Position numbers and translations under genes: made by a program
The notes under the pieces: model-generated
What the model saw: the letters and a program-made list of their open reading frames with translations, nothing else
What the model was told of the DNA's origin: nothing
Database searches by the model: none
Part shown: positions 3,889-48,800 of the stretch, one piece after another
Layout of the letters: each line of letters begins with the position of its first letter
Position numbering within the stretch: the first letter of the stretch is position 1
Assembly (NCBI GenBank): GCA_973895155.1
Contig: OZ316896.1
Span: forward strand, 8,081,539-8,145,538
From: Marsupella aquatica
Lineage: Eukaryota > Plantae > Marchantiophyta
DNA length: 64,000 bases
Direction: 5' to 3'

Positions 3889-4075
3889 TTGTCACTATAC
3901 CTTTGATCCACCAAGTGCAATCGACCTTTCGTTGTGCCTCCTAAACCCTGCAGCACTGCAACATCATAGAGGAAGATGAGTCTCCAAACAAAACAAAGGA
4001 AGATGAGTCTCACAGGAGGGTGCGATAACTTTATCGCACCTCGCATTCATCTTGAAGACATGACTCCCTCACACA

Positions 4076-4409
4076 CTCAAGCAATCTTCAATCAATCACA
4101 GGAATGGAAACTCCGATAAATTTATGGGAGTCTCAAGCAATCTTCAATCAATCACAGGAATGGAAACTCCGATAAATTTATGGGAGTCTCAAGCAATCTT
4201 CAATCAATCACAGGAATTGAAACTCCGATAAATTTATTGGAGTCTCAAGCAATCTTCAATCAATCACAGGAATTGAAACTCCGATAAATTTATCAGAGTC
4301 TCAAGCAATCTTCAATCAATCACAGGAATGGAAACTCCAATAAATTTATCGGAGTCTCAAGAAATCTTCAATCAATGACAAGAATGGATACTCCGATAAA
4401 TTTATCGGA
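4076..4409. repeat. Tandem array of ~6 x 56 bp, each unit carrying a CGATAAATTTATCG variant
   Basis: Unit TCTCAAGCAATCTTCAATCAATCACAGGAATGGAAACTCCGATAAATTTAT(G/C)GGAG, starting at about 4076, 4131, 4187, 4243, 4299 and 4355. Confidence 0.95.
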
Positions 4410-4705
4410 CCTTGAATATAATTTATGGAATGAATGCGCACTGGATCAAAGGAATGCAACAGAGGAATGCAGAATGCGATAAATTTATCGCAGTCCTCTC
4501 GAATCAGGACATTGACACCAAATGACAAGTCAACCTTACATGGATGATACTCGACTGGAATGGTAGTTCCGATAAATTTATCGAGTTCTCTGGAGAAAGA
4601 GTCAAGTCTCTTGGGAGGAATGCAAGACTTGATAGGAGTTCAGTATTCACTCTGAGTGAGGTGTTGTCGCTCCGGCAAAAATAAACGTTTTATGGGCAGC
4701 CCGCT

Positions 4706-4721
4706 CCTCTTTATATAGGGG
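4706..4721 (-). promoter_or_regulatory. Putative TATA box driving leftward transcription of the ORF cluster
   Basis: Minus strand reads CCCCTATATAAAGAG, upstream of the repeat array and ORFs. Confidence 0.4.
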
Positions 4722-6547
4722 ATGCTCTAACCATGGTAACTTTCCCCCTTAACCATGGTTACTTTCTGCCTTAACCCGGGTTAGTGCGTGGTTGACCCTC
4801 GATTACGTGGTTTTGGACCAAGTTACTCGCAGTTCGGAATTTTTCACAGACCAAATGTAAAACCCGATGCACGTATCGCTCCCTGCATTCCCGCGGCGAT
4901 GCAATGTAGGCAACTCATGTTTTTTTAATTTTTTGGTAGTTTTATCGGAGATTGCATTGCCTTAGAAAAAAATGGAATCGGGCTAAACGAGAAGTGTGTC
5001 ACACTTCTCGGTCGGTCCAAAATCGTGTTAAATGTGAAACTTCTTTATTTGGCAATGTTTCCACGCGTGTCTCAAAAAACGACCTAAGCCAATTGACCAA
5101 GACTAATCTTTTAACAGATGGAGGGCGTCCAACTGGTTTAGAATATCCTAAGTCTTGGTTGTCTAATTTCAAAATTCTATTTAATCTCTGATTGCCAACG
5201 CAAAATATAAGCTTGAAAGCTTTTCAACAAATACTCTTTTGACCAAACGTGTAAGATATAGACTGCCTCCCTCCTTTCCGTCTCGCTTTATAAGCCACTG
5301 CAAAGATAAAGATCGATACTGAGATTTTTGCCTCAAAAATTTAGAACGCGCCTCACGAATTTCTTTTGGAGATAGACTTAGGTTACTCTTCCATCAGCCC
5401 TCGACCCGGCTCTCACCCTGAAACTGTTGTCACCCCGAATTGTGTTTAAGGGCAAGTCCCAGTCTCATTCCATGGGGCCCGCGTCATTTGATGAGGGTGA
5501 ATCATCGACTAATTGTAACCGGGTGTTGAATGACGGTGAGAGGGTCGACACTAACGGTGTGCAAGGGGGAATGAGTGTCAACACCAGCTCGTGTGAACGC
5601 AGAGGAAGGGAGCTTGATCCAACGTAGTGGACGGACTGAGAAGGGGAACGCGGAGGACGGGAGACCTTCTGATTTGCGAGTTCAGGTCGAGGGCTGAAGT
5701 GGGCAATTGGTGAGAGGAAGTGCGCCGTGCAATTCAGGAGAAGCCGATCGGAGTTGCTGTGGTAGACAAGTAGGGTTTCTTGTTGCAGAGTTAATGTTTG
5801 GACACCAGCTATGGAGTGAGTTGGAATCTTCAAGGGTGGCAGCGCAGCTCCTTGTCTAGTTATGGGGATGCTACGTGTAGACAGTTTCAATCATGACTGA
5901 CTGGCCCAATACTACCAGCTTTCCAACGGCCCTCGTTATGTCTTTCACTATTTGGAGGCAATTCTTATCGACGAATCAAAGACCAAGATTTGATTATTCG
6001 TTCTGTACGAGATCGACATTGTATCGTCATTTCTGGATGAGTTCTTGAGGTGATCATTTAATGAGTTCAAGGAAACGAGTTCTTAATGAGTTTTTAACGA
6101 GCATTTCCTTTGCTTGTCAACTGATGGTCCAATGGCTCTTTCATCCGTGCTACAATATCGGTAGATCTCCATAAACATGCCCCTGGAATAAGTTTTTTCT
6201 GGCTTAGGAGGCTTTACTGGCATTACACACTTTCTTCAGCATCAAGCCCGCAAGGTTATGTCAAACTGGAACCACACGAAGAATTAATGAAGAACTGTTC
6301 ATCCTAATTAATCATTTGCTTTCGTAGAACATGGAATGATCTTCTTTTTCAGAGTTTCAGCTGTTCCGTCATCTATTTGCGTCTTCAATTGGTTTGAACT
6401 TTTCTTTGGGATCAAATACTTGAATGTGGAAGGCAGACATACAACTTAGTGATTGAGAATTGAAGGTAGACCCTGGAAGGAATAGCATCAGGAATTGAAG
6501 GGAGACCCTGGAAGCAAAAGCATCAGGAAATCCCCCTTGATTCTATT

Positions 6548-6844: not shown

Positions 6845-7284
6845 ATTCTATTGGAGGGAAGAATGGCAGACCGAATCCCTGTTGGGCCCTCACACCTTGA
6901 ATTTCACTCGGAATTATACTAACCAGTTGGCCGTGCTGCCCATTGCAAAATTTCATGGACAACTTCAGGCTGATGACTGGTGAACGCCCTTCAATGAGCA
7001 CTCCGAGTACAAAAAAATTTATAGCAGGTAAGATTACAAGCTCCAAAAAAATAGGTAGTCACAGATCTGTTCTGTTGACTCCATGTTGCTATGATGCTAT
7101 CCAGTTCTCACGAGCATTTTGTGTATGGCCATCATCCTGGCTCATCCATGCACTGTCGTTGTTCATCCTGATTAATGGTACCTTAATTGGATGACCTCAG
7201 GAGGAATTGTCCTGGACCTGTATTGCATTGTCCTGGACCTGTAGCTGCCCCCTATGGTTCAAGTTCTGCCACATACGGTTCAAA

Positions 7285-8694
7285 ATGGAGTTCCCAGGTC
7301 CAGATGAAGAAGACAGCATTTCTCAGAATTGGGAGTCGATGACAGCATTTGTAATCATGAATGCAACAATGGCTGTGTCGCTTGCTGTTTCTCTTCTATC
7401 CCTCATGACCAGGCAGCATCAACTTGGAAGGAGCACCATCTTGCAAAGATTGTCTGCATTGGAAAATTCTAAGTCAAGAAAGAGACATCGACATGATGAA
7501 GATGACTGGAAGCAAGTTTGGCTATTCAATCAGGTAGTTCAAAGTTTCTTCATGAGGAAAAGAGAGATCCAGTGTCGGTGGTACATAAAGCCGAGGAGTA
7601 TACAGTGGTTTTACCTTTTTATTGACTTTGTACCTCATGACGATCCTGAGAGATTTAAGGAGTTCTTTCGGGTCAGCCCAACGACATTCTATACAATTTG
7701 TGACATGGTACACGATGACATGTTGACACACCTGCCATTGGCATTTTGTACTTTGCCAAACAGAAGACTCACAGTTGAGAGGCAGGTGGCTATTGCGCTT
7801 AGGAGGCTCTGCACTCGAGACCAGTTTCTTGGAATCTCAGAGCTGTTTGGAGTTTCTTGTCCTACCGCAATCAAAGTAACTTGGAAGTTTATTCAGGCAA
7901 TCAATGCACGAGGGAGAAGACTTATCAAGTGGCCAACTGGGGCAGAGCTGGATGAGGTGAAATGTGAGTTTCTTGATCGATGGGGATTCCCAAATTGCTG
8001 TGGGGCCATTGATGGCACCCATTTTCCTGTAGAGTTGCCAGCATCAGAGTGCAGCCAAGATTATTTTGATTTTAAAAAGAAAACCTCAGTGTCTATGCAG
8101 GCTATAGTCAATTTGCAATTGCGCTTCTTGCACGTTGTAGCTAGATGGCCTGGGAGCATTCAGGACACACGCTTGCTCAGAGTGTCTACATTTTACAGAG
8201 ACGTTGAGTATAGAAGAGTCAAGTTGCAAGGCTTGGATTATAACTGTCAAGATGGAGAGACTATTCTAAGGGAATACATAGTTGGAGATGCAGGGTACCC
8301 CTTGTATCCCTGACTCATGGTGCCTTTTGCAAGGGGATTATCAGACGAGCATGACTTGTGGAACCACCACCACTCTCAAGCCAGGATGGCAGTTGAAAGA
8401 GCATTTGGGCAGCTAAAAGGAACCTGGCGGATACTCAGTCAAATACTATGGAAACCAAAAAAGCAGAGAATTGGTCCCATGATCTACTGTTGTTGCATTC
8501 TGCATAACTATTTGATTGAGAGAGGAGAGCATTTCAGTCCTGAGTTGCTTCGGGGTATTACACCCCATCCAGGTGGATACGCTGGAGTCCATGTGCCTCG
8601 AAGGGAGTACATGGACGAAGGGCTTGAGGCACGGGACAATTTGCTAAATGAGGTGACAATTTTGTCAGAACAAAGAAGAACCAGAAGAATGTAG
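7285..8694 (+). pseudogene. PIF/Harbinger DDE transposase (HARBI1-like) with one in-frame stop
   Basis: Motifs FRVSPTTF, VAIALRRL, GAIDGTHF, VGDAGYPL and RMAVERAFGQLKGTW. ORFs 7207-8313 and 8317-8694 are in frame across a TGA at 8311-8313 where Trp is expected. Confidence 0.95.
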
Positions 8695-9056
8695 ACTAGA
8701 TACTTTGCAGGTGATCTTTTCATTATTGTGATCAAAGAGCAACAATCAATTGCAACTTTGAGGATGTAGAAAGGACCACGGAACACGTCAGGTCATTATG
8801 AAATTATACATCTGGGATTTGTTCCCTGTTTAGTTAAGACCTGTGATCCATTGAGTTGTGGAATACATTACTCAGGTTTCTATCCTGAATTGAGAGAATT
8901 GGTGATACCTTCAGTGCTCTGGTTGGCATTGTTCTTCCATGAAGATTCTTTGTTGCACGATTGACATTGAGTACCATAGCCTTAGTAGAAGTCCATAAAC
9001 TTGTCACTGCTGTGTATTCTGTAGCTGTGATTGTTCACTGATATTGGAAATCAATT

Positions 9057-9158
9057 GACGAGGACAAACAAAATGTATTACTGGCTGGCATGAGCGATAA
9101 GAAAATTATGCAATGGGATATGCATTCTGGAGATATCACTCCTAAGGAGTATGACCAT
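9057..9158 (+). pseudogene. Captured fragment of the WD40 splicing factor PRP17/CDC40
   Basis: Translates as [34 protein letters not shown], which matches from memory the plant PRP17 segment ...[14 protein letters not shown]...QEYDQH. Confidence 0.75.
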
Positions 9159-9889
9159 TATGGCGAAAGGAGATTCTTCGGCAGTTGAGCAATGTAGACA
9201 TCTCTTGAAGATGTGCAAACAACGTAGATGGATATAGACCCTCGTATGCCAACAACTTACTTTGGTTTGTCTATGATTACTTCATCAAAGGCTTCAAATG
9301 AACGTGCGAACTAATTTTTTTGTGAGACTATATGAATTGTGTAAATGTCACGGGCTCGAGAAGCGGCTTACATTGAATGCCAAAACAATCTCATCATCGA
9401 ACGTGCATGAAGTAAGGACTCACTCTTTGTATACGTTGCCCCAATTTGATTCGGCAGGTTATGAATACAAGCTCGAATAGAACACACTCTCAGAAGAAGT
9501 AGGCGGTCCGAAGGCCCTATTTTACAACATCATTTCGCCAGGAACCATCTTACATGTAGCACCAAAATGGATGCAATCAGAAATTGTATTTGATATGGCC
9601 CAAGCTCTGGTTTCTTCCGGAGGATGGCTGTTGTTCTTCGCGATGGTGTATCAGTGGAATTGATAAAGCAAGGCCTGTCTTGCCTTTGGATCACATGTAG
9701 TTGATCAGTCGAGGAAATTCCCTGAGATCTTATTCATTGATAATCAGGGCAGAGTGTCTAGACGTCCACTGTGATTTTTTTCTCTCCTAGTTTAGTCTGT
9801 AGAGTACTAAGGAATGCGGATGGAAAAGATCAGCACATTATTCTTTAGCAAGTATGTTCAACTAGAAAGTCATAGCAGGATCGCGTGTT

Positions 9890-12800
9890 GTGATGGGTAC
9901 CCAAGCACCGATCGCGGGAGGAACTCCACCGGTTCCACCAGCCCCGCAGGTACCAGGTGCGTTGCGGCCCCCTGCGGCTCAGAACGTGTCGCAGCGATCC
10001 TGGTTTCACTATCGACCCTTTAAGGGACGACCCACAGACGACCCTGATGAATGGATAGCTGAGTTCGAGGCCACGGCCAAGGCGAATGGTGAGGAAGCCA
10101 TTAAGCTAACCATTCTTCCAGGCGTACTACGAGGAGAAGCGCGCCCATGGTATAACTTACAACCCCCGGGTGGTACATGGGGCCAGTTCCAAACGGCGTT
10201 CTTGCAAGAATTTTGGCCCGTCGGGATCGAATCTTGGGCCCTGTCAAAAATCGGGCGAATGCAAATGGGTAAGCATGACTCACTTCGCAAATTTCTGCAG
10301 CGGTTCCAGAAGGTTGCCGCCAAGATTCGGCCTAAGCCAGATGACTCTCTGCTGAGGAAATGGTTCGTCAACGCGCTACCCCAGAGGATGGCGTTCTCGG
10401 TGCTAGAAAAGAAGACCACCACTCTACAACAAGCAATTGATAGTGCCGAATCCTTCAAGGAATCGCACTACGCCTCTCAGCTTAATAGGAGGACCAAGCA
10501 TAAGAAGAGCAGGAGGTATCATACCTTCAGCGACTCTGACTCTGAGTACGACGAGAAGAAAAGGAAGAAGAAACGACGACATAAGAAGAAGGGCCGGACC
10601 AGCTCTTCGTCAGACTCTGAATCAGAGTCTAGTGATTCCCTGTCCAGTAGCCCGACATCAACTGGCTCATCCTCCAGCGAGATCGAGTCAGAGTCTCGAG
10701 ACCACAGAAGAAAGAAGGGATCACGGTCAGATACGGGTAAACATAAACCGCGAGCCAAAGTCGTCACCATGGACCCAAAGGCTGCGGAGGTAGAAAAGCT
10801 AAACAAAATCACAGACCGGCTGAAGGCACTGTCGGTGCACTTGGCGGAAAAACCTCCGGACAAGAAGAAACCACCGGAAATCCGAGCGCATGCTTGGTGC
10901 TCCAAGTGTTATCAGTCGGGACATGTGGTGCAAGAATGTCCAAGATGGAACACTCACGTGCACCAGATGGAGTTGGAGCCCGGACAGTCCGAGCCAGAGG
11001 GATGCACGATGGAGTACTTCTTCGAGGATCCAAGTGAGGCGGTGTTCCAGATGAGTATGACGGGACCTCGCACCCTAAGCGGCCACAATCCAGGGTTCCA
11101 TACCCCTTATCCATATCCGGTGAATGGGCGTGGCCCCCAGATGGTCAGCAATCCAAGTATCCCACCTAAACCCGGAGTTTGGCGGACCCCGGTTTGCTAT
11201 AATTGCGAGAAACCTGGTCACTTTGCCCGAGAGTGCACGGAGCAAAGGAAGCAAGGGGATGGGAGAGCGCTTCCATTGTGCCAGGTCTGTCGAACCGAAG
11301 CACATTCCACGTCAAACTGCCCCTTGGTGCTAGCCGCGAAGGCCGGCGCCGTCAGAGCTGCTCAACCTACGGCCCCACCAATTACGGATGCAGTAGTACA
11401 AATGGTAACAATGGAATGGCAGGACGACTCCACCGAATGGATCGATCTCATAGAAGCAGTCGAGCAAACGGGAACGCACGTGGACGACGAGTGCTATCGC
11501 GTTTCTACCCGATCATCCCGCAAGAAGGATAAGTACAAAGAACGAGATCGGAAGGATGCCCAGCAGAAAGAGGCGGTCACAGATAAGAATAGTCCAATGG
11601 AACCAGACGAGCTGGAAGACTACCAGCGGGATAACCCGAAGTTATTCTACCCACGAGTAGAGGAACTGGTCAAAAAGCAATTGGAAGCCTACGAAGCCCA
11701 AGAGCACGAGAAAGCCATTAAGAAGGATATTGCCGATGCTAAGGCGGCCGAAGAAGCCGAGGAAGCTGAGACTGCCTTGCAAACTGAAGTCAAGGGAGCA
11801 GAAGCAGTAAAATCTGCGACCCCACTGTCTAACCAATATGACATCAAAAAGGATGTTCAGAACTGTGCAGCCACAGCCACTATCGGACAACTATTGCAGG
11901 ATAACCCGAAGTATCGGCAACAACTCAAAGAGATGCTGATAGGAAAGAGGAGGCAACGGCTACCTCGGGTAAGCACCTTAGCCGACTGTATGATGATTTA
12001 CCAGGACTTAGGAGCGTCGGAAGTCTCTATCGAGATAGCGGGCTGTACTGTTCGGTTTGTACCGATAGACGGCGGGTCCGGTGTAAACATCATGATAGAG
12101 GACACTTCCGTAAGGTTGGGATATACATCTTATCAACCCACGGCGCGCGCCATTCGGTTAGCAAACGGCGCCAGGATCATGCCACTGGGGACGTTAACCA
12201 AGATATCCACGTGGATTGGAGGCCTCGAGTTCTTTCTAAATTACCTGGTGATGCGACCCGTCCGACCCTCTTCTTATCCAGTACTGCTGGGCAGACCCTG
12301 GTTATACGGTGCCCGAGTCGTTACCGACTGGGGAAGGAAGGAATTACGATTCGGTAACCCGACTACGACGGTGTCCTGGAAGGAAGAAGACTACCAGGGC
12401 GAGACGCCCCAGGGACCCGAAGAATATGACTCGGAGGAGGACATCTCAGAAGAAGAGGTGAATATGATGGAGTTAATCTCTCGCCTGGATGAAGAGGAAG
12501 TCTTCGGGGTAAATGTCGTCCGAGAAGCCCATATTCTGAACCAGCCCAGACCAGCGGCCCAAATCGAAGCACCCGGGAAACCAGAAGGAGATAATGCGGC
12601 AACGGGCGGAGCATTCCCCGGCAGGATGAGCCCTACGAAGGCAGTTGGCCGGCTGGCCTTACCCGGTATACCCGAGGAAAACGCCACTCAGACCATCACT
12701 CCTCCCGCAAAGAAAAAGGTTACCTGGAGCCCCGAGATTCCGTCCGTGATAAAGGAACCCAACGAACTCCCAAAGGAGCAGCCGACAGTCTGGGAACCTG

Positions 12801-15778
12801 TGGCCTACGATGGCACCAGACTAGAGGAATTGGAAGCTCACCTTGACCGGGCCACCAAAGACCATGTGGAGGTAATCCACAAGGAATACTATGGCAGGTA
12901 CACCACCAAGAGGGAGAGAACATTCAACGTCGGTTATGGCCTACGAGCGCCAGAGGAAAAGACCATCCAAGAACTCCTATCGGAATATGAGGACGTCTTC
13001 GCATGGAGTCACCGAGACTTAACCGGGATTTCACCGGCCTATGGCGAACACGTCATCGATCTAAACTTGGGTGCTCATGCCGTCCGAGAAAGGCAACGAA
13101 GACTAAACCCAAGACATTCCGTCTTGGTAAAGGAGGAGTTGGATCAACTGATCATGGCGGACATCATCTACCCCGTCTTATCTAGCGAATGGGTGTCCCC
13201 CATTGTGGTGGTTCCTAAGAAGGTAGGGCCTGATGGTAAACCTAAAATTCGAATATGCCAAGACTATCGGAAGCTCAACGACGCTACTCGGAAAGACCAT
13301 TACCCGCTACCTTACACGGATATGGTCCTTGACATGGTAGCCCGAAATGAGGTGTACACGTTCCTAGATGGATATTCGGGTTATAACCAGATTTGGATCA
13401 GACTATCGGACCAGCTCAAAACCACGTTCATAACCGAGTGGGGAACCTACGCGTTCAGGCGGATGCCCTTTGGCTTATGCAATGCCCCGGCTATGTTCCA
13501 GCGAATCATTATGAATATTTTTCATGACTTCTTACGAGAATTTTTGGAGGTGTTCATAGACGATTTTGCCATCTTCAGAACAATCGCCCAGCACCCAGAA
13601 CATCTGAGGCGGACTTTGGAGCGGTGCCGGGAAGTAGGGTTGAAATTACACCCGAGCAAATGCTTCTTCGGGGTAACGGAAGGAGTGCTACTTGGACACC
13701 GAGTGTCCAAACGGGGGATCGAGGTGGACCAGGAGAAGGTGGCCGCATGGATGAACGTCCCTTACCCAGCGGACCAGAAGGCGGTGCGATCCTTCTTAGG
13801 CTGCGTAGGATACTACCGACGATTCATTCAGGATTTTGCTAAGATAGCCCTACCCCTTACGGAAATGATGAAGCAAGACGCGGTCATAGAAATGACTCCC
13901 CGTCGAAAATCAGCCTTTGACGAACTAAAAAACCAGCTCACGATGGCTCCGATTCTGACTACCCCCGATTGGAACAAGGAGTTTCATGTGTATGTCGACG
14001 TGTCTGGGTTCTGCATCGGCTCAATCCTAAGCCAACTGGACGACGAAAAACGTGACCACCCCATTTACTTTGCGAGTCGACAACTGTTTGCCGTAGAGAA
14101 AAACTATTCGCCCACCGATCGGGAGGCCTTGGGAATCATCTACTCATGTAAAAAGTTTTGCCATTATCTATTGGGGTATAAGGTAGTATTCCATACTGAC
14201 CATGACAGCCTGAAGTACATGGTAAACAAAGCAGACTTAACGGGGAGAATAGCCCGTTGGGTCCTGCTGCTCCAAGAATTTAACTACGAAGTCAGGGTGC
14301 GACCAGGGAAAGCTCACGTAAATGCGGACTTCTTCTCAAGGATCGAAGGGGAGTCGGACGACGCACCTGTCGATGATGCATTCCCGGATGAGGAGTTATT
14401 CCGCGTAGAAACGGACCAACCAACATGGTATGGGGACCTAATCACCTTCCTCTTCACGGCCCGCATTCCAAGTAACATAAACCAAGAGGCCGCGTCGGTC
14501 TTTCTCCGCAAGGCCGCACCATACATGATGATCCGCGGACATCTGCATAAGGAAGGCGTCGATGGGAAAATCCGCAGATGCCTAGACTATAACGAGACGA
14601 TCATTGTCATGCGAGCTATGCACGAGGAAGAGGCAGGAGGACACTTCGCCCCGGTCACCATGGCTCACAAAATCTTGGACGCAGGTTATTGGTGGCCTAT
14701 GCTTCATCACGACGTAGCCCATTTTATCTGAGGGTGTGACTTATGTCAGCGCGCAGGCAAACCTCGCAGATCGGGTAATCATCCTCTTACTCCAATCTTT
14801 CCCCTTGCCCCGTTTGAGAAATGGGGCATCGATTATATCGGACCATTCACTCCGGTAACCCGAGGTCGGCGTTGCCGATACATCCTTCTGGCTATCGACT
14901 ACTCGACTAAATGGGTCGAGGCCCGGGCAACGGTCAAGGATGACGCGGCCACCACTGCCAGGTTCCTGTACGAACAGATCTTCACCCGCTTTGGACCTCC
15001 CTTGGAATTAGTCAGCGACCGCGGGACTCATTTTTTGAACGAAACGGTGGAAAAACTGACTGACCGTTACCTCGTCAAGCACAGGAAGACTACTCCTTAT
15101 CATCCCAAATGTAACGGACTAGCAGAGCGGGCTAATGGCATTGTAGGGAAAATCCTCAACAAAACCGTGGCAGCCCACAAAACAGACTGGGACGACAAGC
15201 TTTTTGCGGCGGTCTATTCGTACAACTTGGCGTTTAAGACCACTACAAACCATAGTCCGTATTTCTTGGTATTCGGACAACATGCGCTAGTACCCGTCGA
15301 GTTCGAGGTTGAGACCCCCCGGGTGCGCATCCGCCACAGACTATCGGAGGCCGCTAGTTTGTCCGATCGAGCATATAAGATCGACAGTCTAGAAGAACAG
15401 AGATTGTGGGCATCGCGACGCGTGGCAGCTAAGCAAGAAGCAACGAAGAAACAACACGACAAGGGACTGCGTCAGGTGGACATCACTGCGGGAGATCTTG
15501 TCCTTCTGTACGATAGTAGGTACATGTACTTCCCAGGAAAGTTACACACACGCTGGCTAGGACCTTTCGTTGTCCAGCAGATGTACCCGAACGGATCCCT
15601 ACAACTATCAACGTACGCCGGCGACCTCTTTCCCAATTGAGTTAGTTACGATCGTGTGAAGAGGTACTTTCACCAGGACAACGAGCGTAATGATGTTCAC
15701 GAGGACGCTTCACACTTAAGTGGGGAGCTATGTGACACGGGCAACATGTCACTTGACCGAACCCAGGTTGAAGATTAG
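9890..15778 (+). pseudogene. Gypsy gag-pol polyprotein in a single frame with two TGA stops
   Basis: Three CCHC knuckles, protease PIDGGSGVN, RT LDGYSGYNQI...MPFGL...VFIDD, RNase H YVDVSG...TDHDSL, integrase GIDYIGP...SDRG...GLAER and GPF motif. Stops at 14729-14731 and 15638-15640; the frame runs into the LTR and stops at 15776-15778. Confidence 0.95.
15718..15727 (+). other. Polypurine tract
   Basis: GAGGACGCTTCACACTTAAGTGGGGAGCTA|TGT has the typical gypsy end-of-pol, PPT and LTR-start arrangement. Confidence 0.75.
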
Positions 15779-18700
15779 GACTTATACGGTCATAAGGACC
15801 GTAGCCATAGCGTAGAATAGCACGTATAGCCGCCAAGTTGCCATTATGATTAGATTAGGAGTAGGTTAAGATAACCGAATAATTACGAGTTCAGGAAAGG
15901 GATTATTACGCACGACCGAGGTACGGTGGCGGCAGCGGAGTAAAAATCAGTTAGAAGAATCACGCTTGGACCGAGACGCCGACTTCAGCTCGTTATCAAT
16001 GACCAAACGGCCTGACCTTCTCACGCTCGGGCTCATCCTGGCACCCCCATAAGAGAGGAGCCGATGGCACTGCGGGCCATTCGATCACGTTTACCTTTTT
16101 GGAATTCATGGACGCTGCCATCCGCTCGCCTTTTTGATTGAATCCAGTCGACCTTTACGAGGAAATTATCGAGGGAGAAGAGCGGAATGTGGTGAGATTT
16201 AGTCAGGACGAGCGAGGCCTCCGCGAAAAAGGACCAGCCAGGTGGGAACGTGGACGCAACGAACCGGACTACGAGGTTAGTATGACCCTCACAGCCTTGG
16301 GATTTTGGACCTTGTTTGGCGAGGTAGGTGCTAAGTTCTCCGAGACTTACTGGTACTCTTGCCCCGAGAAAGCCGCTTACGAACGAAGGTACGCGAAGCT
16401 GGTAACCAAGGTAGCACTGGTTAATTGCGAAAGGACAGCCATCACCAGGGATTCTAGCTATAACGAGCTGCGAGACTACATCACCGAACTATATCTCAGC
16501 GAGGAAGGGCTTAGATCGGTAGCAAAGGCGATTCTTGAGGTTCCAGCTAAGTTCTTTAAGCTGAAGGGCAACCAGCGGCTTACTCAAGCGGAGTTCGACA
16601 AGATTCCGGGGTACCTAGACCAGCAGATCGCAGCCGAAAAGCGCCAAGAAGACATCAGCAGACAACGGGAAGCGGCGCGTAATCTCACGTTCCTCGGGGA
16701 AAGCTCCAACGCCTTCAACTGGGATATGGCTACCCCAGCGCCTCAACCGATGACCACCGAAGTACCGCCGAACCAGTCCCAAGTCCGTCCAGTAATCAAT
16801 GCGGAGTGTTCTTCGGGTTCCGAGCGAGCTAGTTCGCAACTCGAACAGCGTCCTCGTAAGCGGTCAAGGACTACGACGGCCCCCGAATCAACACGGACCG
16901 ACGCCGCGCCTGCACCTGCCCGGGCAAACCCCCCGACCAACCAGACCCGACGGCCCCCGGATAACCCGAAGTCCAACTTATTACAGGTAATCCGCGTCCC
17001 CGAGGTAGTCTGGATCGCGATCAAAAAACTCGAACATGCGGACTATCTCAAGGAGCATCAGTTGGAGCGGTTCGCCCACTTACTATGGAGGCCGTGCGCC
17101 GCCGGGCCGAAGAAGATTTGTGAGTTCATCTCCAATTTCGACACTGATGCGTCGACCACCAAGGTTTCGGGGCAGACCTTATCACTCACGGAGCATCGGT
17201 TAATGCAAATTTTCGGCCTACCAACCGGGCCGGTGCCGGTGGAAATCCAAATTTGGGATAAGGAGTATACGCCGCAGCACTTCAAACCTGAGGGTAAGAC
17301 GGACAACGGATACAAGCAGGGGGCGTGCACCAACTTAACCTGTATGGAGCGGCTTAACTTCATACAGACTACCCTACACATGATTGAGCCACGATCCGAG
17401 ATTTCCCTCTGCACGATCGTGCAGGTGGAACAGTACAAACGACGAAACTGGGCCCAATTCTTCTATCGAAGATTCTCGGGGGAGCTGAAGCGGGCTCAGG
17501 GTGGTATGGCTATTGGAGGGAAGACTTACTTGGGAAGTCATATCGCCATTATCCTCGCCTGGTACAAGGCACGGCGGGAGGCCAGAGGAAAGAATACGGC
17601 CACCTCAGCCCCGGGTAATGTCACCCCCGCCCCAGAGGAGGCAACCCCGACTACGCGGACTACTGTCCCTCGGACAAACCCCGAGCCGAAAGCCCCAACT
17701 AATACTCCGCAACCGCCCCCTATGGAAATTCCACCGCCTTCTTCCGTTGAGCCTCCGCTACCTGCAGTACAACCACCCCCAATCCCTCCACCACCTGAAG
17801 AAACCTTCCCCTCCCCAGCGCTGACTACGGAGGAGCTCATTGCCCCTGCCGAGGAACCACCGGTACCCGAGAGGATGGAGGACTACCAAGTAGCCCCGGG
17901 GACCATGGCCTACGACCTGGTCCAGAAGTTTAGCCAGACTATGTCTGGGGAGTTGGCGACATACATCGGACAACAAGTCTTGGCGTACTTTCAGCCAGCC
18001 TTCTTCATGTTAGAGCACCAACCACGGATTGTCAGCCGCTTGGAAGAAGAACTCATGGCGAAGGGGAATGAGATCGGGCGTCTCCAGATGCTAGTAGAGC
18101 ACCTCGAGGAAGAGGCAACGACCCGCCGCGAGGATTTAGTCCGCACTGTCGAACAGAGGGACGGACTAACCCAGGAGTTAAGCGGAGCGCAGGCCGAACT
18201 CAAGAAGCTGGACGACACCGTGCTTCAATTACGCTCAGAATCTTCGGCTCGGGTTACCAACCTGACCGACCTCAACAAACAATTCCTGCAGGCAGCACAA
18301 CAGGTGGCTAGTCTCTCCGCCGAACGAGATAAATTGCTAGCGCAGGACCAGGTCCATCGCGACGCCATCGACCAGCTCAACTTGGAGGTGGCGCGGCTCC
18401 AGACTGAAGCCGATGAAGCTGCAAACGAGGCGGAGGAAGCATTACGGGACAATAAGGCTTTGCAGGACCACGTCACCCTGCTCATCCTCCAGCGGGGAAA
18501 ACCTGGGCCCACCTCTGATCAAGGTGGCTCGAGGTCTCGCCCCGACAAGGGGACCAGCCCTGGTCCAACCACTGCACACACGTAAGGGGTAGTTAGCGAA
18601 GGGTAGAAGCAGGCGCCGCGCGAGGCGGTTAAGTCAGCAGCATCTTTTAGTTAGGCGTAACGACAGAATGATTGTCATTAGGCGCCGATTAGCGGCAGTA

Positions 18701-19568
18701 GGAAGAATTAGGGCCGGTCAGTTAGGATCAGCCAACGTAGGATTGAGTCCATCAATGGACTAGAGTTTGTCAGTAGGCTTGGCCGCTGCCATTCCGGTTG
18801 GCACACTCATCGTCGACGGTCAACCGGTCAGTGCAGCGCGACCAGTAGTCAGCAGTTAGTTAGTCAGTAGGTAGTACCCCGGAAGGTAGTATCCTCCGGT
18901 TCTCTTCCGCTATGGTAGTATTTAGGCTTCCCCTTCCGCGATGGGAAGGGGGAGAAGGCTTAGTTATCTCAGCAGAAGAAAGGCGAGGCACGGGGAGTCC
19001 CGGCCTGAGTAGGGTCAGAGCGTACCAAGGAGTGAGAGCCAGAGTCAAGCTTGCTGGGCAAGTGCGAGGCAGGGCCTCGTAGAGACTGCGCATCGACTGC
19101 CGTTGGGCCTGCTGTCCCCCTTTGAAGTCGAGTCAACCATGTAAACTGATGCTTCGCTGAGTAAATGTAGTCTTTTCCCCCTAATGTTTCTGAGAGTAAC
19201 TGGTGTTGTGTGTATGCTTTGTCCGGGCAAAGGCGCCATTTTAAGGGACGTACCGGGTGCAGACTAATGGTAGGGATTGCCACTCATTGCATGTCACAAG
19301 TTCCTGTCACGTCGATGGCTTGAAAAGCCCCAAGTCAGGAGTTAGTTCGCGTCACTAACTGAGGGAAAATTCCAGCGGTGGAAAATAAATATACCTATGT
19401 CAAGTACGAATTATGCGAGTGTTATACCAGTAAGTATAGCGGTTTAGCCCGACTTAGGGCTAATGAAGGTCACTACACACCTCCTTGCCCGAACCCTCAC
19501 CCCTACTGGTGGTCGAGGTCGCACCACGACACTAACCCGGATTTAAGGCCCAGGGTAGGGGTGCGACA
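15731..19568 (+). repeat. Inferred 3' LTR of ~3838 bp
   Basis: TGTGACAC...GTGCGACA termini (6/8 inverted match) immediately after the PPT, with TATA-like TATTTAGG near 18919. No second copy is in the window to confirm the length. Confidence 0.65.
16108..18585 (+). CDS. Extra retrotransposon ORF (Athila-ORF/plant-transposon-protein-like domain, Pro-rich linker, coiled coil) inside the inferred LTR
   Basis: 815 open codons from 16138, with an in-frame ATG at 16108 separated by one TGA (16135-16137). Motifs ICEFISNF...VSGQTLSLTEHRLMQIFGLP and NWAQFF...YLGSHIAIIL; C-terminal heptad repeats. Confidence 0.8.
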
Positions 19569-20556
19569 CGTAGTCATCTGTGACTGTTGACGTATCATTT
19601 CTTCGTGCTTTTTCATGTTAAGATCTACAAGATTATCATGCTTTTCCTTGTCCCAGTTGCGACTACTTTCATCCTCAAGAATCTTCCTAGCTGAGTCTTT
19701 CCCAAGGAAATCTAGAAAGGAACTTGTTGTCTTCTTGAACTGCTCATCAAGTTTCTCTCGATGACTTTTCTTGACCCCAGTATATTGCATTCCTGATGGG
19801 GGCGATCTCTGATGCAGTCCTGCTGCCCCTGATGGGGGCGATCGCTGATGCAGTCCTGCTGCCCCCGATGGAGGCGCTCTCTGCTGCAGTCCTGCTGCTG
19901 ATGTTTCCATTGGATCAGCGGGAATAGGAAGAGGAGAATTCACCTCTACATAATTTTCCTCTATGAAATTCGTATTCGTGGCATGTGGAGTATGTCCCAT
20001 ACCAGTTTGCCCAGCCTCCTGCATGAGCTCTTCCTCGACATCTCCACTGTCCACCACCTGGTTTGGTGATGGATTGATCGCTCGATGCGTGCCCATCCAG
20101 CACTCCATGGCATCAAATAATTCGTGAGCGAAATTGACGGGAATTTTCCTGCTCTTCCTTTCATCGCTGCCCATTTCATAGTAGTCAGATTGGCCACTCC
20201 CGACATGATTTTGATAATCATACACTTTCTTGAAGTCTGTGACCAATTTCTCCCAACGTTTCTTGGTCTGCAGTGATTGTCGTGTCACACTATCTCTTGC
20301 AAGGACTACCAAAATCTCTCTCCACTTCTGATCTACAGTCTTGATTCTTTCTCTCGATGTGTGATTCAAGGAAGTCTCGTGTTCCATCCGCTTTCCTTGC
20401 AATTAATAGAAGCAATTCATGTAGTCTCCATTGCCTAGTGGGGGGTTGATCTGAAGCAGGACCAGAAGGACGAGGCCCACTCGCCACAGCTCCACCAACT
20501 TCCCGAGATTGATGTGAGCCAGACTGAACACTTCCACTGGCAGATTGGGTCGCCAT
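19569..20556 (-). pseudogene. Harbinger ORF1, trihelix/Myb-SANT-like DNA-binding protein; frameshift near 20400 and C-terminus cut by the gypsy element
   Basis: WRLHELLLLI/QGKR...DQKWREI...QTKKRWEKLVTDFKKVYDY...YYEM...ERK...P, convergent with the transposase. Contains a 3 x 36-bp repeat (SGAAGLHQRSPP) near 19792-19900. A possible C-terminal remainder lies at 9142-9222. Confidence 0.88.
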
Positions 20557-36289: not shown

Positions 36290-37660
36290 AACATTTGACA
36301 CCACTGTGATGAGAGTCTTTGGTCACCTCATTGGTCTGGGAGCCCTTGATGGAGAGGATGGTTCTTTTGCGGCTAGGCAGGCTGCGTTACCCCCATCGGG
36401 AGGGGGTATGGGGGTGGCCTCGGCAGTGGACACTGCCCCTTGCGCGTTTCTTGGTAGTTGGGCGCAGGTGGCCCCTGCCTTGGCCTCACGTTTCATTGTG
36501 GACCTTCGGCCTATCCTCTCTGACTCGGTCATGGGAGTGGAGAACGGAGCTCTCCCTTTTCAGGTCCAGCTTCGTCATGCACGGTCATTATTGCCGGAGG
36601 ACGTGCAGAGCGTGGTCCCTGCTTTCTAGGGAGTTGTTCTGGACATCCCGGATCGAGTCCAACAGGTGATTTCTGATCGCATGCACCGACACACCCTTTC
36701 CAGCATGCTTTCTGAGGCACCCTCGGATTTGGTACGGGCTAGTCTTTTATCCGGTTCGGGCGCTAGTTCGGGGGCTTGGCTATCGGCGAGTCCTCTTTGG
36801 GCCCCCTTTCGTATGAGTTCTTTTATTTTTACCACATCCACGCGCTTTCGGTTGGGTCTTCCTCACCCTTGCCTCTTGGGTCAGCCCACTTGCGTCTGTG
36901 GTGCGCCCCTTGATGGGCAAGGCATTCACATTCTCAGGTGCGGTCATGGTAGTGAGAGGACTGCGACACACGATGACATTCGGGACGTGGTGGCGGCCAT
37001 TGCCCGTGATTCTGGTTACCATGTCATGATGGAGCAGAGACATGTGTTACCTCCACGGGATGGGGTTTCTGATCGCCGTCGTGCAGATTTGGTATTCTCT
37101 CGCGCTGGTGTTCGTGCCCTTGGGGATGTCGTTGTTGCTGATCCGACTAGTGGGGCCAACGTGGCTTCGGCGGCTCATATACCTGGCCATGCCGCCGCGA
37201 GGGCAGCTCGGCTGAAGGAGGAGGCCTATGTTGTGCGGTACCCCGGGGACCTCTTCTACCCGTTTGCCGTGGAGGTCTTTGGGGCGCTACACCCATCCTT
37301 TGACCGTTTTCTTCGCTCTTGCGCAGTTCAGTACGTGGAGCGGAGGCCCTATCCCCCTGTGTCGGTCATCACTGCATTCTTTAGACAGAGGGTGTCTGTT
37401 GCGCTTCAGCGGGCACAGGCGTTCACTATTCTTCGTAGGGGGGAGACTGTTGGTATTAGGGCCGCTAGTAGGATTCCTTTGCTTGACCCCCCCATGCAGT
37501 TCACACCGGAGCTTTACCAGGCTCTCCAGTTTGCTGATAGGTAGGCGTTTGGTTTCCTGTATTTGGGTTTGCTTTTCTTGGCCCCTTGGTGGTTTCCCCC
37601 CTTGATTGGGTCTTTTGCCTGTGGGATCATGTCTCCCGGTTCGGCGCCCTCTGTTTTTTG
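36290..37660 (+). mobile_element. 5'-truncated non-LTR retrotransposon of the restriction-like endonuclease group (CRE-like)
   Basis: ORFs 36306-36629 and 36666-37544 are in frame across a TAG. Motifs LPPSGGGMG, GAWL, FRLGLP, zinc knuckle CVCG...H...C, HD, RADL...GDV, K..Y and PFAVEVFG. Boundaries are approximate. Confidence 0.85.
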
Positions 37661-41249: not shown

Positions 41250-44200
41250 TGTTATAACCCCTAAGAGAAGTCTACCTAAGGTTAGAACACATAGGACGGT
41301 TATACCACTAACCGCCTTAACAACAACCTCATGTACATATACCTTTGGATGAGTAAAGTGTGGCATCTTGATGTGTGAAGTTAAACACGTTATCAGCACG
41401 AAGGTGCTCACCAGTTTTTGGGGTGTGGATAGCCATCGCGAGTGACCACGACATTGGACAGACGGATAGACCAGGAGGATTCAATTTTTTTTTCGATAAG
41501 CCCTCAATTCCAGTAGAAAATCCCCCCCCCACCCCCGATTATAATTGGCGACCTCGATGGATCGAAGATGGATCACAAATCCATAAGTTCAGCAGCCAGA
41601 AATACACCAAATTCAACATCGAGAACGAATTTCCTTCACCAAATTACAACGCTGACCTCTGCATACTTTGCACCGAAGTGAAAACAGGAATGGCCATTGG
41701 ATGTTCACCACACTAGACTGAAAACGGCTGAGCAAGTATTCCCGCGAAGCTATCCTATTGGAAACAATGGCTACAAGCACCATCGAGAAACTCTATTTTC
41801 AGGCCCTGTGCATCGATGGTTCCAATTTCCTATCGTGGACATTGGACGTCGAGGCCCATCTGGCATCCAAGAACTTGGAGGACACTATCCTCACCGATAA
41901 CGGCCCCACCCTCCAGGAGAAGGCCAAGGCGCTGATCCTGATCAGACACCACCTAGCAGACTCCTTGAAGCGCCAATACATGAATGCATACAACCCCCGA
42001 GTACTTTGGGACGAGCTCCACGCCAGGTTCGACCATACATGCACAATATTTCTACCTGCAGCAAGACACGACTGGATTAATCTACGGGTGCAAGACCACA
42101 AGACGATTGCCGAATACAATAGCGAATTGTTCCGCATCGTTTCCCAACTGGCAATTTGCGGACACCCAGTGGGCGACGAAGAACAAATCGAAAAAACACT
42201 CTCAACATTTCATTCGACAAATCTGGTACTATCTACACAATATCGCAACATGCGATTCACTACATACTCAGAACTGATTTCTCATATGTTATTAGCAGAG
42301 AAATATCAAATCCTCTTACTACAGAACACCAAGCAAAGACCCCCCGGCACTCTACCTCCTCAACTGAACCCCGAAACTCACTTCAACACTTGGAGACGTG
42401 GTTCGTCCTCGACATACAGGGGTAGAGGGAGCAATAGAGGAAGGAATACCTTCCGTGGACGTGGCAACTCTTCACCACGTGGGGGGAGATATCAACTTCG
42501 AGGCGGAAGGGGTCGAGGGAGATCTCAACCCGGGAGAACTCGAAACAACTGGACGAGAAACAACGCGAATTCAGATAAGTCAGACAACCCAATCATTTGC
42601 CATCGATGCGGGACTAAAGGACACATTAAGAAAACATGTCGAGCCCCGGCCCACTTAGTCGCATTATACCAAAAGCAACAACAAAATGATGAATATGAAA
42701 CGCACGGGGCATTTCTAGAAATGCCCAATATCCTACCCGAAATGCACCTCGCTTTACAGCCTGAGATGCAGATGACTCCCGATGACCCCACCTTCTGCAT
42801 ATTGGACAGTGGGACTTCCCACTCGATACTACGGATCAAAACTTACTTCACGCACATCACCCCATCACAACGTAGAGTGACAACAATAATGGGCCACCAT
42901 CAATTAGAGGAGGGACATGGCCCTGCCAAACTGCTACTCCCTGAGGGCACACCTATTCATATACAGTCCGCCATATACGCCCCCAAGGCCACACGGAACC
43001 TCCTAAGCTTCAAGGATATTCGAGAAAATGGCCTACATATCCATACGAGCATTCAGGACTCCAAAGAAGTATTACACATTATCGCCATTACACAAAATGG
43101 CACAGAAATCAAAGAAACATTGATAGCCTTCCAAACGGGGTTCTATCCCATTCGGATCACCACCTTCCATACCGAGACCCATACACCCTCACCCACCAAA
43201 ATATGGCACCGCCGTTTGGGCCATCCTGCCACGCAATGTTTTACAAAATCATCAAAGACACTCAGGGAATACCATCTACCGTGCACCCAACCTCAATCAA
43301 AACCCCCTGCTTGGCCTGCTCGCAGGGGAAACTTACTGTCAGACCATCACCCTCAACCACAGACAAGAACATACCTCAATTCCTAGAACGTATCCACGCA
43401 GATGTCTGCGGCCCCGTAGACCCACCAAGTGGCCCCTTCAGATTCTTCCTGGCAACTATAGACGCCTCATCAAAATGGTCCCAAGTATCCCTCTTATCCA
43501 CCCGAAACTTAGTTTTCTCACGCCTGCTTGCCCACATCATACGTCTGAAAGCCCAATTCCCGATCACCCAATCCAGACCTTACGTGTAGACAACGCTGGG
43601 GAATTTACATCAAAGACATTTGACAATTTTTGTCAGGCAGCAGGGATAGAGGTGGAATACCCGGTAGCATATGTCCACTTCCAGGATGGAATCGCTGAAT
43701 CCCTGATTAAGAGACTACAATTCATAGCGAGACCCCTATTAATGCAAACACAACTCCCACCCACAGCATGGGGACATGCTATTCTGCATGCTCCATCCTT
43801 ACTCCGATACAGACCATCCGCCTTCAATACTAGTTCCCCACATCATCTGGCATTTGGAACAACACCGAACCTGGCTCACTTAAGAACATTTGGGTGCCAG
43901 GTACTGGTACCCATTATGGGACCCAAGAGGACCAAATTGGGCCCACAACGTCAGAAAGGAATTTACATCGGATTTGACTCCACATCCATAATACGCTACC
44001 TAGAACCTACTACCGCAGACGTATACAAAGCCCGCTTTGTCGACTGCCACTTTTATGAGAATATATTCCCAACCCTGAGTACCGGTCAGAAGACCACAAC
44101 ACCGCCAAGATTAACATGGCAACTCAATTCTAACTTCTGGAATGACCCTAGGACAGCACAAACCGATACGGAAGTCCAACGGATCTTACATCTCAACAGA

Positions 44201-46951
44201 ATAATGGAAGAGCTCCCAAATGCATTTGCCGATACCGCCAAAGTCACCAGATCCCACATCCCTGCAGCCAACACACCATCCAAAATTGAGATAGATAACC
44301 AACCAGTAAACAATGTAGAACCAAGGAAGAAGCGGGGACGCCCACTCGGGGCCACTGACAAACAACCACGACAGAGGAGAACACCCCTTAGCAACCCCAT
44401 TAACACCCCTCCATCTGAAAATGACGAAATCGCTATCAACTACAACTCTACCGGCAATATCTGGAACAGAGACACATCGGTCCCAGATAACATATTCGCA
44501 CTCCAGATATCACAAGAGATCATGGAGGACTCACCCGATCCAACAACGATATTTGAAGCCCAAAAGCAACAAGATTGGCCAGAATGGCAAATAGCCATTA
44601 ATTCGGAGCTGGACTCACTGATATCCCGACAAGTCTTTGGACCGATCAGGCCGGCCCTACCCCATACCCACCTCACCGGATATAAATGGACCTTCATTAA
44701 GAAACGGGATGCACAAGGCAAGATTGTGAGATACAAGGCCCGATTAGTAGCTAAGGGATTTACTCAAATCCCTGGCAGAGACTATGACCTAACCTACTCA
44801 CCGGTCATGGATGTCATCACCTACCGATACCTCATAGCATTCGCAATCCACAACAAATTAACAATGCACCAACTGGACATTGTTACTGCTTACCTTTACG
44901 GCCACCTTGACACCACAATCTACATGGAAGCCCCCCCGAGCTCTTAACCAGAGTAAACTACCACATTAAGGGGGAGCAAGCAAAAACAAGCTATCCAACG
45001 AAAAATGACGGCCCTTTTGGCCACACAAACAAGGCAGTGCTACACACCACAGCAAAAGCGATAGGATGGCAGGCTTCTACTAAGCCAACACCAGAACAAT
45101 CAGCACTTACTGCTAGGACCCGCTTTGCTGTTCAAGTCCTTCGATCAATGTATGGGTTAAAGCAGAGCGGTAGAACATGGTATAAACATTTCAAGAACGA
45201 AATGCTAGCCATGGGATTCAAAACTTCTGACTTGACCCCCTGCTTATTCATTAAACACGAAAAGCAGGAAATCATGATAGTGGCCATCTATGTGGATGAT
45301 CTCAACTTATTTGGGACACCAATAATCCTGCAAGAAACGATTCGTCAGCTGAACAAGATATTTGAAATCAGAGATTTAGGCAGAACTACATTTTGCCTCG
45401 GACTGCAGTTCGAACACCTACACACAGGAATCCTACTCCATCAATCCACTTACACTCGAAGGATGCTGAAACAATTCAACATGCAGACAATAAAACCAGT
45501 TAAATCACCAATGGATTTACGCTCACTGGATAGAGACAAAGACATTTTTCGAAAACGATCTGAGGGGGAGCCACTGCTTGGCTCAGAAAAGCCATATCTG
45601 TCAGCCATAGGAGCTTTATTATTTCTGGCCTCCTAGACACGTCCTGACATTGCATTCGCAGTTAATCTTCTGGCACGTCATAGCGCACAACCAACGATAA
45701 GACATTGGAACGGCATCAAACGAATACTCCGATATTTAAGCGGCACCATCGACTTCGGATTATTCTACCCCTACAACATGGATATTACATTGACTGGCTA
45801 CGCGGATGCTGGCTATCTGTCCGACCCGGCAGACGCGAAATCACAAACAGGGTACGTCTTTATGCTTGGACCTACTGCTATTTCTTGGAGAAGTACAAAG
45901 TAGTCACTCACAACAACTTCTTCGAATCACTCCGAGATTATCGCACTGTATGAAGCCAGTCGGGAATGTATCTGGCTACGAAACATAATCCAATATATTC
46001 AAGACACAACAGGTATGCTGAAATTACTACCACCTACAGTCATTTACGAAGATAATTGGCTTTGCATAGAGCAGATTTCAGCTGGATACATTAAAGGCGA
46101 CAGGACAAAACACATTGCTCCCAAATTTTTCTTTGCACATGAACAGCAGGGAGACACAATCAACGTCCAATGGATCCCGAGCTCTAAAAATAACGCAGAC
46201 CTATTTACTAAACCATTACCGCCAGTTATCCATACTGCTCTTACTAAATCCATCGGCCTGCATAGTTTACTTGAACTGACACAGGAAAAGGGATAATGAA
46301 AGAATCAACGATTGAGGGGGAGTATGAACTCCCCTACAAACACCAACAAATGCGGACCCCACCACCGATCGCACGCAGCTTCAATGAAGAAACGTACCTC
46401 CATGACCAGCAGGCGGACGCGGCCCAGAATGACCACTCTCACAAACCGCAACAACGACTATCAACCGACACCACATACAGTCAACCATTCGAACATGGCG
46501 CGACGAGCGACGAGCAACGACAACCTAAATCTTATCAAACCCACATCAACAGACGACCAAATACCCTTAGCTCTCTTACATATAACATATCCAGACTTAG
46601 CAACGTCAAAACACTTTAGGAATACCAAATTATTCCTTTACATAGTTTAAATTACAAATGAAGATAGGGGTGGTAATACTCTTTCCTCCCACAAGAAAGG
46701 AGGGGAGGTTTTGATGAGGTTACACCCCATCTTCCATACAAAACTTACTTTATAATAAGTAGACTTTCAATGTCTGTAACTTTACCCCCACAAAAGTTAC
46801 ATCCAAGGGGGAGTGTTATAACCCCTAAGAGAAGTCTACCTAAGGTTAGAACACATAGGACGGTTATACCACTAACCGCCTTAACAACAACCTCATGTAC
46901 ATATACCTTTGGATGAGTAAAGTGTGGCATCTTGATGTGTGAAGTTAAACA
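41250..46951 (+). mobile_element. Ty1/copia LTR retrotransposon, Bianca-like, full length
   Basis: 138-bp LTRs at 41250-41387 and 46814-46951, identical by eye. TSD CAAAT at 41245-41249 and 46952-46956; PBS-position motif CGTTATCAGCACG; PPT AAGGGGGAG. Confidence 0.96.
41767..46296 (+). pseudogene. Copia gag-PR-IN-RT-RNaseH with 3 frameshifts and 2 stops
   Basis: CHRCGTKGHIKKTC, ILDSGTSH, WHRRLGHP, HADVCGP, DNAGEF, YKARLVAKG, YGLKQSGR, YVDD and ADLFTKPL. Frameshifts near 43230, 43560 and 44935; TAG stops at 45634 and 45901. Confidence 0.93.
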
Positions 46952-47439
46952 CAAATGAATTATATTTGGTGTGAATGAAAAAGTGAATGCACCTGTCCCC
47001 AAACTAGAAGGAAAGAGACAAAGTATTCTCTTTACCATCCATGTATACAAATTATATGCTCTTCCCTCTACTATCCATGTTATACCATGCCCCTCCCTCT
47101 ACCATCCATGTTACCTCTCTTAACTCCCACCTTCTACCATCCATGCAATACCATGCTCCTCCCTCTACCATCCATGATATATCATCCATGCATACAACGT
47201 TACATAATGATAGTAGTGTAGTTTAATTGCAAATATCACATGGTCAATCAAGTAGGCATAATCTAATCAATGAGAGAAAAAGAAACCAAAAAGTAATAAA
47301 ACAGAGGGAACCAGGGGGGGTTGGTTGGTTTGGGGTCAGTGGTTTGTTGAGCTTTGAAAGGAAAAAAAGCAAAGGGAAAAATCATTGTCACTCTGTTATA
47401 CTTTGGTGGTTGATGTCGCCTCTCTTTGAGTCATGATAT

Positions 47440-48574: not shown

Positions 48575-48800
48575 ATACCTAACCTAGACGTAAGAGTAAA
48601 TACCCAACAATCTTCCCCTTGACTCTGGTCTAGGGGAGAGTAATACTGCCAATGTATATGATCCCTCAGCGGGAAGTTCTGGACAGAAACCAAACCGGTT
48701 TCCCTCTCTAACTAGAGCAAACCAGAACTAAGCCGTAGCCTAATACATAGGAATGAGGAAGAGCATATATCAGTAATTACAATGAATGTTTAAGAAAACT

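Follow-up and report, generated by a model that had tools for sequence, protein, structure and literature searches.

The locus described here raises the question of whether the long open reading frame (ORF) behind pol of a gypsy element lies inside the long terminal repeat (LTR) of that element, and what its protein may do. The stretch analysed (the window) comprises 64,000 nucleotides of Marsupella aquatica contig OZ316896.1 (assembly GCA_973895155.1, positions 8,081,539 to 8,145,538). Our preferred reading is a 5'-truncated gypsy element with a gene in the unique 3' region (U3) of its LTR, predicted to encode a nuclear coiled-coil protein with a fold like that of VANC21 and PMD proteins, whose proposed role is to bind DNA of the element itself and to oppose its silencing. 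Taken as a whole, we consider this reading evenly balanced. That the gene sits in a 3.8-kb LTR, copied to both ends of the element, is probable on its own, and an anti-silencing role of the accessory protein is a suggestion that we place slightly below an even chance. The argument depends on the following features.

9893..15730, plus strand: gag-pol of a non-chromovirus Ty3/gypsy element, with zinc knuckle, reverse transcriptase (RT), RNase H and integrase, placed with an RT-RNase H tree
15718..15727, plus strand: polypurine tract (PPT)-like sequence, 9/10 purines, 3 nt before a TGT
15731..19568, plus strand: putative 3' LTR of 3838 bp, TG...CA, a high-depth unit in reads, with the start inferred from PPT and TG
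16282..18585, plus strand: accessory gene, 767 aa, open in the window copy
18590..18871, plus strand: cluster of AGTTAG / YAGTAG-like short motifs that precedes the TATA-like box and may serve as binding or enhancer sites
18919..18924, plus strand: TATA-like box TATTTA, 649 nt before the 3' end

The PPT-like tract and the TGT at 15731 lie about 50 nt downstream of the conserved end of integrase, and the integrase frame continues into the tract. The chance of such a loosely defined site was ~2.7% per 100 nt in 300 shuffles. Two of these sites, at 15718 and 16174, were found in 15600-19568, each lying upstream of the gene; there were none in gag-pol and none in 18586-19568. At the other end the ...CA terminus at 19568 adjoins a Harbinger Myb/SANT gene that is cut there. 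The first-pass annotation had placed a PPT and TGT at the end of pol, a TATA-like box at ~18919 and a matching terminus 3.8 kb further on. The tract and the box were recovered; of the third claim the CA end stands, and the termini match as inverted repeats at 6/10 nt only. The TG...CA termini expected of an LTR are thus present right behind a PPT, albeit a modest one. As judged by the position of the TATA-like box, the accessory gene would fall in U3. In two relatives, L001 and L002, which are described below, TATA-like words were also found, at distances of ~760 and ~890 nt, respectively, from the ends of their LTRs.

Read depth was compared in four (X1-X4, from 2 studies) of the five sequencing runs that contain part of the stretch, none of which is recorded as RNA. 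Expressed as mean summed contig depth, which is not copy number, the gene side of the block was 8.2, 12.5, 7.7 and 9.5 times as deep as gag-pol in X1 to X4, and the lowest block bin exceeded the highest gag-pol bin in all four runs. Relative to the gene side, the last kilobase had a depth of 0.73, 0.66, 0.94 and 1.04, against a ratio of at least 2 expected under a short LTR, and no depth step was seen near 18.95 kb in any run. Depth rose within the bin 15417-15817, so that the start of the block is known to about 400 bp; block-level depth was already reached at 15794, 63 nt past the TG. The drop fell within the bin 19427-19827, which fits an end near 19568. No contig loose ends at 15731 or 19568 were found among the 24 listed of about 1870. 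We read the block as one ~3.8-kb unit that is far more abundant than gag-pol. Since the whole block has 8-12 times the depth of gag-pol without a step at 18.95 kb, a long LTR with many solo copies is favoured over a 600-bp LTR, and the copy number expected along the whole length of an LTR, at least twice that of the internal region, is seen by the depth proxy alone (7.7-12.5-fold, 4/4 runs). The first-pass annotation had named a short LTR, starting after the purine run at 18943-18958, as the finding that would speak against a gene within a 3.8-kb LTR; this run is followed by CTTAG and not by TG, so that this case did not materialise, and the ratio of tail to gene stayed at 0.66-1.04. The placement of the gene in the LTR by the first-pass annotation agrees with the depth and the missing step and is unproved, no copy of the family with two LTRs having been seen.

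No 5' LTR, primer-binding site (PBS) or leader was found upstream of gag in the window, self-comparison of the window gave no second copy of any part of 15731-19568, and no target-site duplication (TSD) was found around the block (AGCTA vs CGTAG). The window copy therefore appears to have lost its 5' end. Its gag-pol frame (start 9893, to about 15730) is also broken by in-frame stops at 14729-14731 and 15638-15640. Pfam matches on pol give zinc knuckle, RT, RNase H and integrase in the gypsy order, and no chromodomain was matched, as in non-chromovirus Ty3/gypsy elements. Across pol only the RT-linked RNase H was detected with Pfam. As there is no additional RNase H between RNase H and integrase, as would be expected in Tat/Ogre/Retand elements, the window element is not an Ogre/Retand element. 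In a quick RT-RNase H tree of 98 rows, from which 23/120 matches were dropped for short cover and which held no labelled Athila, Phygy or Selgy references, the window grouped with Riccia P0055 and metagenome rows (97), and 47 angiosperm rows stood apart (99).

The stop-free frame 16138-18585 holds the 815 codons reported in the first-pass annotation, and the longest frame in 1000 order-2 Markov simulations was 290. The ~825 codons given there for the gene overstate its length. Seven of the nine relatives chosen for their N-terminal match (two of which are one cluster) begin at a methionine aligned to the ATG at 16282, and none of the nine reaches further upstream, with all these starts being gene-caller predictions. 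Because the relatives begin at this methionine, we assigned 767 codons to the gene and ruled out the 825-codon model from the ATG at 16108. The encoded protein has the following layout.

16282..16701, plus strand: N-terminal helical domain, aa 1-140, conserved among relatives
16849..16863, plus strand: RPRKR, aa 190-194, motif resembling a nuclear localization signal (NLS) in a disordered linker, a motif match only
16966..17592, plus strand: central domain at aa 229-437 with a net charge of about +9; its predicted fold resembles the DNA-bound region of VANC21 (DUF1985/PMD-like)
17593..17916, plus strand: proline-rich acidic linker, 30% Pro
18034..18486, plus strand: helical region with a heptad pattern (about aa 585-735), predicted to form a coiled coil

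The AlphaFold model of the central domain, built with 34 sequences, had a pLDDT (predicted local distance difference test) score of 94.5. Compared with 48,161 chains by VIA-align, its top match was the VANC21-DNA crystal 9LNK (chain 295-534; Z 7.7, root-mean-square deviation (rmsd) 4.5, 194/209 residues), and the next match had a Z of 2.6. A second VANC21 entry, 9LNJ, was the sole chain with Z>=2 among 72 (Z 7.9, rmsd 4.4, up to 198 residues aligned). VIA-align Z values below 8 can reflect a common arrangement; nonetheless, the VANC21 match is isolated and spans the whole domain. The Atlas leads for the window domain were PMD (0.88, 20% of cluster) and DUF1985 (0.87, 13%), and both recurred for the L002 domain. 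The DUF1985 domain of VANC and the PMD of MAIN/MAIL1 are described as structurally alike (PMC13547354; bioRxiv 2024.09.27.615353). The central domain is very probably a distant member of the DUF1985/PMD fold group. Profile comparison also gave a marginal match to the start of Transposase_32 (E 0.015, probability 3%), which lay above 30 shuffles and 40 real windows, and no Transposase_32 region was detected by the domain hidden Markov model among 145 pol-type proteins. The model of the N-terminal domain (pLDDT 82.7) matched generic helical bundles only, and sequence searches of the PDB gave no match or coiled-coil noise only.

A HMMER search for which the first 485 codons served as query brought up 35 relatives at E<=0.001 (top E 1e-23, 35% identity), 32 matching the central domain and 3 the N-terminal domain only. 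All ten relatives with an organism name, of 20 looked up, belong to the liverwort Calypogeia fissa (CAM6086213 and CAM6082161 are examples), in which the accession neighbours gave no clear LTR-pair signal. The full-length relatives P0183 and P0194 keep the domain order of the window protein. Neither the window protein nor its 35 relatives matched any Pfam family, including PMD (PF10536), nor the DUF1985 profile PF09331 at E<=0.1 among the families listed. Judged by its sequence, the accessory protein belongs to a family that no Pfam model covers. A word-indexed search that took the full ORF as query returned 0 of 7994 candidates, and a search with the family alignment 0 of 3892, a weak null that covers proteins of 1587-4530 aa only. 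The HMMER and AlphaFold analysis called for in the first-pass annotation thus gave relatives, no Pfam family and a central-domain fold nearest to VANC21. Its view of the ORF as lacking a membrane helix was upheld, with a top 19-residue hydropathy of 1.18 and a value of 1.6 reached by just 2/38 relatives. The further proposal of a nuclear or anti-silencing factor rather than an envelope protein is in line with the VANC21 match, the RPRKR motif and the missing membrane helix, and is unproved.

The relative L002 is a complete gypsy element on a plant-like contig, with LTRs at 4562-6203 and 16668-18322 (~1.65 kb, 93% alike) that contain no long sense ORF. Its 2444-codon frame holds the same domain (E 2.5e-11) in frame after integrase, followed by coiled-coil sequence, and its presence in this complete element identifies the domain as an accessory domain of gypsy retrotransposons. 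The pol of L002 is 44% identical to that of the window, and L002 represents a different family. The VANC-like domain and about 700 more residues are fused behind integrase at L002:12950-15628 (+), with no Pfam family. A second ORF of L002 (15805-16779) runs into the LTR, and its TSD can be read in two ways, as 3 bp or as 5 bp that overlap the termini. The sequence before the 3' LTR (16650-16680), reverse-complemented, matches the end of the 5' LTR and the start of the PBS (6195-6225) over 10 nt. The contigs of L002, L003-L006, L008, L009 and others are plant-like retrotransposon contigs inside bacterial genome records, which is likely contamination. The relative L001 has just 1.55 kb of LTR tail without a long ORF and is uninformative for the location of the gene. 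It has an Asp-like PBS; a tRNA-Asp-type PBS is a trait of the Athila clade. Between PBS and gag (L001:1965-2240, +) it has an Elf1-like zinc-ribbon ORF (PF05129, E 3e-28), apparently a captured host transcription-elongation factor gene.

In the mechanism that we propose, plus-strand synthesis would start at the 15718 tract, by which everything from 15731 on would be copied to both ends; we hold this step to be likely. Recombination between LTRs would leave solo LTRs that retain the gene, and would account for a depth ratio well above 2. The gene may be expressed from a putative promoter in the 551-bp head of U3 or through a putative spliced RNA from the LTR promoter. The protein could oligomerise via its predicted coiled coil, as described for VANC, and could recognise short motifs in the non-coding DNA of its family, for which the AGTTAG-type cluster is the first candidate. 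Outside its coding sequence the block has 8 copies of AGTTAG, with 1.1 expected, and a 6-mer of any kind was so frequent in 2/300 shuffles.

A number of observations weigh against the preferred reading. The tract at 15718 was missed by two stricter PPT scans and is therefore a modest PPT, and as inverted repeats the termini of the block are weak, with 4/168 TG sites scoring higher. No locus of the window family with two LTRs, and no solo LTR, was seen in the metagenome, viral and genome contigs searched; among these, the metagenome contigs gave no ORF locus, the viral contigs no pol locus and the genome contigs no P0005 locus. Short overlapping contigs inflate the depth of variable regions, one of the four runs may be the source sample, and in X2 and X4 the left bin shows more depth than a step at 15731 would give, so that the start is fixed only loosely. 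L002 has the domain inside the element, outside the LTRs, and its 3' LTR has no adjacent PPT, which means that in these lineages an LTR can begin without a PPT in front of it. As to function, the match to VANC21 is middling (Z below 8, 9% identity, rmsd 4.4-4.5), Foldseek with the central domain gave nothing at E<=0.001 against the PDB and viral models, and the Atlas scores for named families were below 0.9. PMD, DUF1985, Transposase_32 and ATHILA were matched by 0/34 aligned members among the 25 Pfam families listed, of 80. Four of 24 central domains are net acidic, and enriched words occurred likewise in 2/2 other LTRs tested, so the AGTTAG enrichment is not specific and provides a candidate only.

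These points bear on what else the block could be. The gene might be an additional 3' ORF of the ordinary kind, located after pol and ahead of a shorter LTR, with the 15718 tract as an internal PPT and the depth contributed by non-autonomous derivatives that have the gene and lack gag-pol. Athila elements have an internal second PPT, the window holds no second LTR, and faster divergence of non-coding sequence could mask part of a depth step. L002, with the same domain internally and a 3' LTR that starts without a PPT, keeps this explanation alive, and the space between pol and LTR is the usual place of extra ORFs (PMC7264820; PMC6317226). However, if each derivative had two short LTRs, the tail should have no less than double the depth of the gene, and the ratios of 0.66-1.04 in 4/4 runs do not agree with this; nor does the lack of a PPT+TGT site downstream of the gene, or the block-level depth already present 63 nt past the TG. 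We regard an internal ORF as rather unlikely. The 8-12-fold depth gap would also fit a separate element inserted behind gag-pol, for example the solo LTR of a different family, or a non-autonomous DNA transposon, and PMD/DUF1985-like domains are known in Mutator-like DNA transposons (PMC5418596). Such an insertion would need to have landed 3 nt behind a PPT-like tract, and with no gypsy LTR after 19568 a second deletion would be required. The TSD that the first-pass annotation had expected of a nested insertion is missing around the block, and a solo LTR of another family would still mean a gene in an LTR. We therefore find a separate element improbable.

The location may also be right and the function another, the protein being a chromatin tether for the integration complex or a structural or transcriptional factor without anti-silencing activity. 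In other gypsy lineages targeting domains sit behind integrase, and the L002 domain is fused in frame behind integrase. A common fold proves no function, and PMD proteins act both for and against silencing (PMC5418596; bioRxiv 2024.09.27.615353). The window gene, however, is free-standing, where solo LTRs without integrase would retain it, and its sole structural match is a DNA-bound anti-silencing protein; another function is, in our view, possible at well below an even chance. An envelope-like membrane protein could be expected from a sense ORF downstream of pol, which is the env position (PMC7264820), but the low hydropathy of the protein and of all except two of 38 relatives, the NLS-like motif and the DNA-binding-type fold match make this very improbable.

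Taking the preferred reading of a U3 gene further, a liverwort gypsy family may have put a VANC-like gene for sequence-specific anti-silencing in its U3. Each of its many solo LTRs would then be complete in itself, supplying gene, promoter and target motifs, and could act in trans against silencing of the family; the DUF1985/PMD fold would be an ancient device of retrotransposons, older than VANC and angiosperm MAIN. We offer this extension tentatively and consider it doubtful as a whole. If true, a 2.3-kb U3 gene would outlive the recombination that removes gag-pol, and solo LTRs would not be inert. The accessory protein would stand as a candidate for sequence-specific anti-silencing by an LTR retrotransposon, and a DUF1985/PMD-like domain in liverwort retrotransposons would make the origin of PMD and VANC testable. 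The survey of PMD in PMC5418596 covered angiosperms and left open whether the domain originated in the host or in gypsy elements; dicot VANC is traced back to host MAIN in PMC13547354. Reviews place the extra ORFs of plant elements in the interval from pol to the 3' LTR or ahead of gag (PMC7264820; PMC6317226; PMC11728184). LTRs of up to about 5 kb are given in PMC6317226, so the length of the window LTR is not exceptional in itself; according to the same paper, 57% of Ogre elements have PMD and 16% of Athila elements have Athila ORF-1. No account of a complete gene within the LTR of a plant retrotransposon came up in the literature searched, which left most subscription papers outside its coverage, and the supplements of PMC6317226 may hold one.

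The element lies between remains of Harbinger-type genes, and the window holds other repeats.

7195..8700, plus strand: Harbinger-type DDE transposase, broken, left flank
19569..20387, minus strand: Harbinger-type Myb/SANT gene that the 3' end of the element cuts, adjoining the terminus at 19568

Host-gene-like fragments fill 8700-9890, between the Harbinger transposase and the truncated gag, and one of them presumably resembles a WD40 splicing factor. A copia element at 48134-54737 (-) is a very recent insertion, with 476-bp LTRs that are 100% identical and contain an 18-bp tandem array, and with gag/pol split by one stop. Another copia element at 41250-46952 (+) has identical 139-bp LTRs and a frameshifted pol. 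A 304-codon frame at 36630-37544 (+) has C/H zinc-finger-like and nuclease-like motifs and no Pfam match; we take it to be similar to the C-terminal end of a site-specific non-LTR retrotransposon. At 4020-4465 about 8 units of 56 bp form a tandem array.

Among known systems, U3-encoded genes that are duplicated with the LTR exist in retroviruses, namely sag of mouse mammary tumour virus and nef of human immunodeficiency virus, in LTRs that are far shorter and with nef overlapping U3 only partly. The likeness of these to the window gene is one of layout, and no relation in sequence or fold is expected. The 3' ORFs of the Athila ORF1 / Transposase_32 type (PF03078, PF20167) resemble the window gene as sense ORFs downstream of pol with an NLS and a coiled coil (PMC11728184; PMC13547354), and Transposase_32 has the weak profile match mentioned above. 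However, the Athila ORF precedes the PPT, and the RT-RNase H of the window stands apart from the angiosperm clade. The PMD-A eORFs of Ogre (PF10536) are likewise extra ORFs encoded by gypsy elements, in this case of angiosperms, and they share with host MAIN/MAIL1 a PMD of DUF1985-like structure, the Atlas lead for the window domain. In contrast to the window gene, they are described as internal and not in LTRs, and the window protein has no PF10536 match.

VANC21 is encoded by VANDAL21, a Mutator-like DNA transposon of Arabidopsis, whereas the window gene is on a retrotransposon, and VANC is called dicot-specific in PMC13547354, whereas the window is probably liverwort DNA. The two proteins have 9% identity, the window protein has no Pfam DUF1985 match, and the target motifs of VANC form long tandem arrays whereas the candidate motifs of the block are dispersed. 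VANC proteins bind short non-coding motifs of their own family and remove methylation (PMC5735166; PMC10398659), and short repeated motifs are present in the non-coding DNA of VANDAL21 (PMC5735166) as in that of the window block. Oligomerisation through a coiled coil is predicted for VANC21 (PMC13547354), and a coiled coil is likewise predicted in the window protein. Both are accessory genes encoded by transposons, and their central domains are alike in predicted fold over 194-198 residues (9LNK/9LNJ).

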